Origin: Escherichia coli
GTDB taxonomy: Bacteria; Pseudomonadota; Gammaproteobacteria; Enterobacterales; Enterobacteriaceae
Length of the DNA: 57,499 nt
Direction: 5' to 3' (one strand)
Assembly (NCBI RefSeq): GCF_003334315.1
Contig: NZ_QOWR01000027.1
In this document: in pieces, positions 56,501 through 57,499 of the stretch
How the letters are laid out: each line of letters opens with the position of its first letter
Position numbering within the stretch: the stretch's first letter is position 1
Program-made: the position numbers

Positions 56501-57499
56501 AAGAGAGAGCACGATTGTGGCTGGAAGCATGGCGTTTATCATTGTCAGGATGGCACATTTCTGTTCTTGCTGATCCCATTGAATCGCCGCGCCCGGAACT
56601 GTTCCCGACGCAAACATTGATTGTCTGGACAGGCATGACACCAACGAGAAGGCAAAACGAACTTTTACAACACTGGGGTGAGCAAGGTTATAAAGTCATC
56701 TTTCATGCCCCCTAATTTCACCTTTATCCTGCCCCTTAGACAGAATGTTATAATCTGAACCCACAACAGCATTTGTACCGGAGCTGGTCCGTTGCAAAAT
56801 GCTCACCGGGAGAATTCAGGTAATCCCTCTATCACACTCTGTACATATCACAGCCAAAGGACAGACCAGATTGAAGTGGTAAAACCGATCGTGCACACTA
56901 CGCAGTCTCACAACTAACAAGAGGTTATTATCCTGATGGATCAGGTCGTTGTTTTTCAAAAGATGTTTGAGCAAGTGAGAAAAGAGCAAAACTTCTCCTG
57001 GTTTTATTCAGAATTAAAACATCACCGTATTGCACATTACATTTATGGTAATGACTCCAACTTATTGATAGTGTTTTATGTTCAGATAATGCCCGATGAC
57101 TTTGTCATGCAGCTCCACCGATTTTGAGAACGACAGCGACTTCCGTCCCAGCCGTGCCAGGTGCTGCCTCAGATTCAGGTTATGCCGCTCAATTCGCTGC
57201 GTATATCGCTTGCTGATTACGTGCAGCTTTCCCTTCAGGCGGGATTCATACAGCGGCCAGCCATCCGTCATCCATATCACCACGTCAAAGGGTGACAGCA
57301 GGCTCATAAGACGCCCCAGCGTCGCCATAGTGCGTTCACCGAATACGTGCGCAACAACCGTCTTCCGGAGACTGTCATACGCGTAAAACAGCCAGCGCTG
57401 GCGCGATTTAGCCCCGACATAGCCCCACTGTTCGTCCATTTCCGCGCAGACGATGACGTCACTGCCCGGCTGTATGCGCGAGGTTACCGACTGCGGCCT

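Follow-up and report, generated by a model that had tools for sequence, protein, structure and literature searches.

Among described systems, the closest to the element analyzed here are the classical IS1 copies of Escherichia coli (IS1A and IS1R, found in K-12 and B). The terminal inverted repeat of IS1 is about 23 bp long. The inverted repeats carry an outward -35 sequence, but a hybrid promoter is formed only if the flanking DNA contains a suitably spaced -10 (PMC8764528, PMC9330008). Deletions and inversions adjacent to the element are also known (reviewed in PMC9330008), and preferred IS1 targets have long been recognized (Zerbib et al. 1985, as cited in PMC9330008).

The gene interrupted here, ycgX, encodes a member of the DUF1398 family. 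Full-length YcgX (134 aa, reconstructed) matches Pfam DUF1398 (PF07166) across residues 8-126 (E 1.4e-47), and the nearest relative with a solved structure is YdfO (PDB 2hh8, E 1.7e-37). To our knowledge, no function is known for ycgX. The gene is prophage-like and variably present, and its paralogues in the prophages DLP12 and Qin are ybcV and ydfO (PMC3509220). It was the sole gene de-repressed in an hha/ydgT mutant and not in an hns/stpA mutant (PMC3686432). The orthologous position of ycgX is within the gene order bluF-bluR-ycgX-ymgL-ymgK-iraM.

An IS1 insertion in ycgX is already known, as it is present and annotated in the public genome of strain Ec-U1 (NZ_CM192142.1), a urine isolate from Burkina Faso. 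In the PGAP/RefSeq annotation, an IS1A transposase is placed between the two halves of a DUF1398 pseudogene (ACVUFD_RS16990/16995/17000), and a programmed frameshift is marked in this IS1 copy. At 768 bp the element is complete, with both ends present, and the 9-bp duplication TACATTTAT occurs on either side of it. Beyond IS1, ycgX resumes, and ymgL, ymgK, iraM and icd come after it. The original prediction had regarded the same IS1, annotated in the reference genome of the strain, as grounds for giving up the finding. The Ec-U1 RefSeq record does include this IS1, so the finding stands but is not new.

The window, by which we mean the whole 57,499-nt stretch of E. coli DNA that was analyzed, is collinear with Ec-U1 over its full length and ends within the corresponding IS1. 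The features of the locus are as follows.

55984..56715, plus strand: bluR, encoding a MerR/MlrA-like repressor; a 243-aa ORF, the intact upstream neighbour
56716..56935, plus strand: bluR-ycgX spacer of 220 bp, with an AAGAGG ribosome-binding site before the ycgX ATG
56936..57046, plus strand: 5' fragment of ycgX, codons 1-37 of 134, identical to MG1655 b1161 at 111 of 111 nt
56936..57127, plus strand: chimeric ORF of 63 aa, composed of 37 YcgX residues and 26 residues from the IS1 end
57038..57046, no strand assigned: TACATTTAT, the 9-bp target sequence and left copy of the target-site duplication, identified from the empty site in MG1655 and the duplication in Ec-U1
57047..57499, minus strand: IS1 (IS1A type, by sequence identity), 453 of 768 bp, from the IRR end inward to the window end
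57047..57069, no strand assigned: right terminal inverted repeat of IS1 (IRR), GGTAATGACTCCAACTTATTGAT, exact at 57047, unique in the window and absent from 100 shuffles
57062..57499, minus strand: C-terminal part of insB, the IS1 transposase (NCBIfam transpos_IS1), with the frame open to the window end

The 5' fragment of ycgX, the precise IS1 end, the identity of the element and its orientation can all be read directly from the window. The gene is broken exactly after codon 37 (56936 + 37 x 3 = 57047). The predicted position and reading frame of the IS1 end, at 57047 and in frame after codon 37, are thus confirmed. The upstream ORF had been expected to align to YcgX, and its 37-residue fragment is identical to residues 1-37 of K-12 YcgX. 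Placement of an IS1 within a DUF1398 gene immediately downstream of bluR is borne out by the nucleotide identities of the ycgX fragment and of the element (453 of 453 bp to IS1A), together with the DUF1398 assignment of YcgX described above.

The 453 bp at 57047-57499 match IS1A copies of REL606, MJ-T and EC6 at every position, and constitute the only IS1 sequence in the window. The first bases, GGTAATGACTCCAACTTATTGATAGTG, occur once in the window and in none of 100 shuffles. The sequence of the opposite end (IRL, GGTGATGCTGCCAACTTACTGAT) does not occur anywhere in the window, which ends inside IS1. The minus-strand frame scores 126.2 bits against NCBIfam transpos_IS1 (E 1.5e-36, profile positions 100-199 of 199; the curated cut-off is 100 bits). 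The IS1 transposase is encoded by insA and by insB', which is expressed through a -1 frameshift; insA and the frameshift site are located past 57499. The transposase genes of the element are on the minus strand, face back to the ycgX fragment and bluR, and are convergent with both. In its IRR, its InsB C-terminus and its AT-rich 9-bp target the copy agrees with classical IS1 of K-12 and B, and only its location differs. The empty site in MG1655 reads CATTACATTTAT followed by TATCTGG.

The left side of the locus (bluF and bluR) is collinear in the window with MG1655, REL606 and Ec-U1. The top NCBIfam match of the 243-aa bluR ORF is to its MlrA paralogue, with a score below the cut-off; the identity of the gene comes from collinearity with the gene annotated as bluR in Ec-U1. 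The blue-light genes bluF and bluR appear uninterrupted, as do ycgZ-ymgABC, judging by collinearity with Ec-U1. Shortly before bluR, at 55897-55934, the bluF-bluR spacer contains a perfect inverted repeat with 14-nt arms, ATACTTTGTACAAT and ATTGTACAAAGTAT, separated by 10 nt; it is a candidate operator. No Rfam family was found in the bluR-ycgX spacer at gathering score. Rfam searches of 54000-57499 and of the whole window returned, near the locus, only a sub-threshold chance match (sR23). The sRNA C0299 is located at 39348-39426.

About 30 of the 119 DUF1398 domain positions are left in the truncated YcgX. Because more than 70% of the only domain of the protein is lost, the ycgX allele in the window is most likely null, as judged from its sequence. 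The 37-aa YcgX fragment alone has no NCBIfam match, and a precomputed DUF1398 match is on record for the chimeric 63-aa product. Loss of YcgX is the best-supported effect of the insertion. The allele would be a natural ycgX null, an ordinary IS1 knockout of a dispensable, prophage-derived gene, and might be used to mark the strain or in place of a constructed mutant. In other respects it matters little, in that it opens no new question and reveals no new mechanism.

The explanation that we consider probable is a simple IS1 insertion in ycgX that created a null allele of little consequence. An IS1A-type element would have entered ycgX at TACATTTAT, an AT-rich target, and split it behind codon 37. 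As the opposite end of IS1 is beyond the window, we infer a simple insertion from Ec-U1. By analogy with that genome, the copy in this strain would be a full 768 bp long with a 9-bp duplication of the target, and past it would come the other 97 ycgX codons and the genes ymgL, ymgK and iraM. A simple insertion predicts that the far end reads ...GGCAGCATCACC, then TACATTTAT, then TATCTGGCTACGGATAAC, so that the DNA past IRL would be TACATTTAT plus TATCTGGCTACGG and onward. The event may have been a recent, neutral or nearly neutral hop of the element in an IS1-rich, commensal-type E. coli lineage. The phenotypic consequence would most likely be small or none.

The window starts in tandem ldr/rdlD toxin-antitoxin repeats (1-972, with rdlD at 134-199 and 669-734 on the minus strand) and ends in IS1, and may thus be a whole draft contig bounded by repeats. 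Contigs with repeats at both ends raise the concern that the junction was created by mis-extension of a contig end into a multicopy IS1. We regard such an artefact as extremely improbable, given that the identical junction occurs in one complete chromosome and three other independent assemblies, and that the break falls exactly at the terminal base of IS1, at a site that gives the canonical 9-bp duplication.

The junction is real and recurrent, but it is rare among sequenced strains. The gene ycgX is present in 5,040 of 5,426 complete E. coli genomes, and 5,014 of these 5,040 have it as one contiguous full-length copy. An uninterrupted alignment across the same junction was obtained for one of the 5,426, Ec-U1, in agreement with the suggestion that the insertion is strain-specific. 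The exact 63-aa chimeric product is also encoded in GCA_965183535.1, in GCA_004172665.1 (a contig found in 4 samples) and in one ENA metagenome assembly. The exact 30-nt junction was found in none of the GTDB species representatives and in none of the JGI metagenome contigs, and no record was found for the 81-aa ORF predicted from the 3' remainder of ycgX. MG1655 has an intact ycgX (405 bp) and lacks IS1 between bluR and iraM, in agreement with the original prediction. E. coli B had been put forward as a candidate carrier, and this suggestion fails, as in REL606 ycgX is intact (405 bp) and no IS1 is present between bluR and iraM.

Other strains have separate IS1 insertions at approximately ycgX nt 190, 212, 238, 286 and 338. 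If insertion were random, about 5 IS1 insertions in ycgX would be expected (about 12 chromosomal IS1 matches per genome x 405 bp / about 4.8 Mb x 5,040 genomes), a rough calculation that treats genomes as independent when they are not. We do not claim that ycgX as a whole is a hotspot for IS1. At most 26 of the 5,040 copies of the gene are partial, and the 6 distinct IS1 sites are within a few-fold of the crude random expectation. In every ycgX insertion that was found, the transposase is encoded on the minus strand, an apparent orientation bias that is an ascertainment effect, as the search sequence had its IS1 end oriented that way.

The Ec-U1 allele is like that of the window in that ycgX is hit after nt 111 and the element has the identical orientation. 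The two differ in the flank, where 5 SNPs occur within 186 bp: one in bluR (56638) and four in the bluR-ycgX spacer (56730, 56771, 56820 and 56823). The SNP at 56638 alters BluR residue 219, which is Thr in the window and Ala in Ec-U1. The IS1 copies differ at a single nucleotide (57371); the change is non-synonymous, with Ser set against Arg in InsB. Over positions 1-57046, differences between Ec-U1 and the window are clustered at 0-6, 24-26, 30-34 and 38-42 kb and at 56638-56823, with almost none at 48-56.6 kb. This distribution has the mosaic appearance that is typical of recombination. GCA_965183535.1 has the flank haplotype of Ec-U1, and GCA_004172665.1 and the ENA contig have that of the window. 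No complete RefSeq E. coli genome combines the window flank haplotype with the junction. The two haplotypes fit either two independent insertions, or one insertion together with recombination and IS1 gene conversion.

The finding of the same insertion on two flank haplotypes, and the accumulation of IS1 copies between bluF and iraM in several strains, could be taken to indicate that the insertion is regulatory and possibly selected, acting on iraM, ymgL, ymgK or bluR via a hybrid promoter, polarity or antisense transcription. The criterion for a hybrid promoter is a -10 hexamer in the flank, 16-18 bp from the -35 of the IS end and upstream of a gene. In the described cases (blaTEM-1, acrEF, afaA), the element is likewise IS1 and has the same outward -35 in its inverted repeat (PMC9330008, PMC8764528). 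In those cases, however, IS1 is upstream of the activated gene and a well-spaced -10 is available, whereas the element in ycgX is intragenic and has no such -10 at its IRR end. The best sigma-70-like -35/-10 pair at the IRR junction has 7 of 12 consensus matches, and none reaches 8. A scan of 56600-57499 on both strands identified 0 promoter-like sites, against 1.2 expected. The proposal that outward promoter activity of IS1 alters expression of neighbouring genes thus finds no support at the visible end of the element.

Transcription directed outward from IRR would also be on the minus strand, antisense to the ycgX fragment and bluR, where no minus-strand gene is encountered for about 3 kb. 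The IRL side, which faces ymgL, ymgK and iraM, is past the window end. The number of IS1 insertions in ycgX is within a few-fold of the random expectation given above, and the window junction itself was found in a single complete genome of 5,426. We thus consider a selected regulatory role very unlikely, and a polar or antisense effect of the insertion is speculation.

The window stops inside IS1 and the far junction lies beyond it, so the element could instead mark the endpoint of an IS1-mediated deletion, inversion or replacement, in which case the DNA past the element would not be the rest of ycgX. One metagenome contig and several other strains point to such events at this locus. An ENA metagenome contig (ERZ27281965, k141_11401; locus L011, 452-1495) has a window-type flank and a full 768-bp IS1, and then continues into a carbohydrate-porin/rhaM locus that in complete genomes is about 1.7 Mb away. 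In AVS0068 (locus L006, 2925-5628), the DNA past an IS1 at ycgX nt 338 is sitABCD, in place of ymgL-iraM. In SLK172 (NZ_CP017631.1; locus L015, 2440-3640), as in about ten isolates from chicken, IS1 stands between the end of ymgA and ycgX nt ~34, and ycgZ, bluF, bluR and the start of ycgX are lacking. The SLK172-type locus has the appearance of a deletion, associated with IS1, that removed the blue-light sensor and its repressor.

Against an endpoint at the window junction, the sole complete genome with this junction, Ec-U1, has a clean insertion with the 9-bp duplication. The ENA contig was assembled from short reads (k141) over a multicopy repeat of 768 bp, a situation that often gives chimeric joins, and its far junction was found in no complete genome. 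Its join may reflect either an IS1-mediated inversion or a chimeric short-read contig. Overall, we consider a rearrangement endpoint unlikely, and simple insertion in ycgX is the preferred explanation.

In GCA_004172665.1 (SAHT01000125.1; locus L012, 1-1393), the IRL end of an IS1 abuts the base equivalent to window position 55896. The 1,151-bp segment from bluR to the ycgX fragment is thus located between two directly oriented IS1 ends, an arrangement like that of a composite transposon. Less likely than the preferred target suggested below is that the element later mediated rearrangements in the window lineage, of which this bracketed segment and the junction in the ENA contig would be the products.

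A second DUF1398 gene provides a close parallel. In ET245 (NZ_CP100978.1; locus L014, 3007-3894), IS1 is inserted in ydfO, also after codon 37, in equal orientation and with formation of a 63-aa chimeric ORF. The duplication TACATTTAC is present on both sides. The ET245 insertion differs in that the gene is of the Qin prophage type and is at another chromosomal place, and its IS1 is 99.1% identical. It is clearly an event independent of that in ycgX. The 5' parts of ydfO and ycgX are identical at only 81 of 111 nt, and CACATTACATTTA(Y) is common to both at the insertion site. The ycgX insertion thus provides a further observation on how IS1 chooses its targets, in that the homologous site of a paralogue was independently struck.

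Under uniform targeting, and with about ten known IS1 insertions in DUF1398 genes, the chance that site and orientation coincide exactly is roughly estimated at about 5%, a value that is raised by the AT preference of IS1. The coincidence is therefore only a hint of a preferred target. We tentatively suggest, while considering it somewhat doubtful, that IS1 may have a preferred, orientation-specific target (CACATTACATTTAY) in DUF1398 genes, namely CACATTACATTTA(Y) at codons 34-37, and that the ycgX insertion possibly represents two events. If so, the insertion in the window would be one case of a recurrent hotspot, not a single inherited event.

IS1 activity is frequent in the bluR-ycgX neighbourhood, as illustrated by AVS0068 and by EC6 (locus L013, 3179-5167). 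EC6, the complete genome with the flank closest to that of the window, has an intact ycgX, and in this genome IS1 splits bluF. In Ec-U1, besides the copy in ycgX, two further IS1 copies are arranged in tandem between ymgL and ymgK (locus L001, 7630-9172). They are only 7 bp apart (CATGCTT), with GTCATGCTT flanking the pair. Apparently, the second copy entered right where the first one ends and gave rise to a 7-bp duplication.
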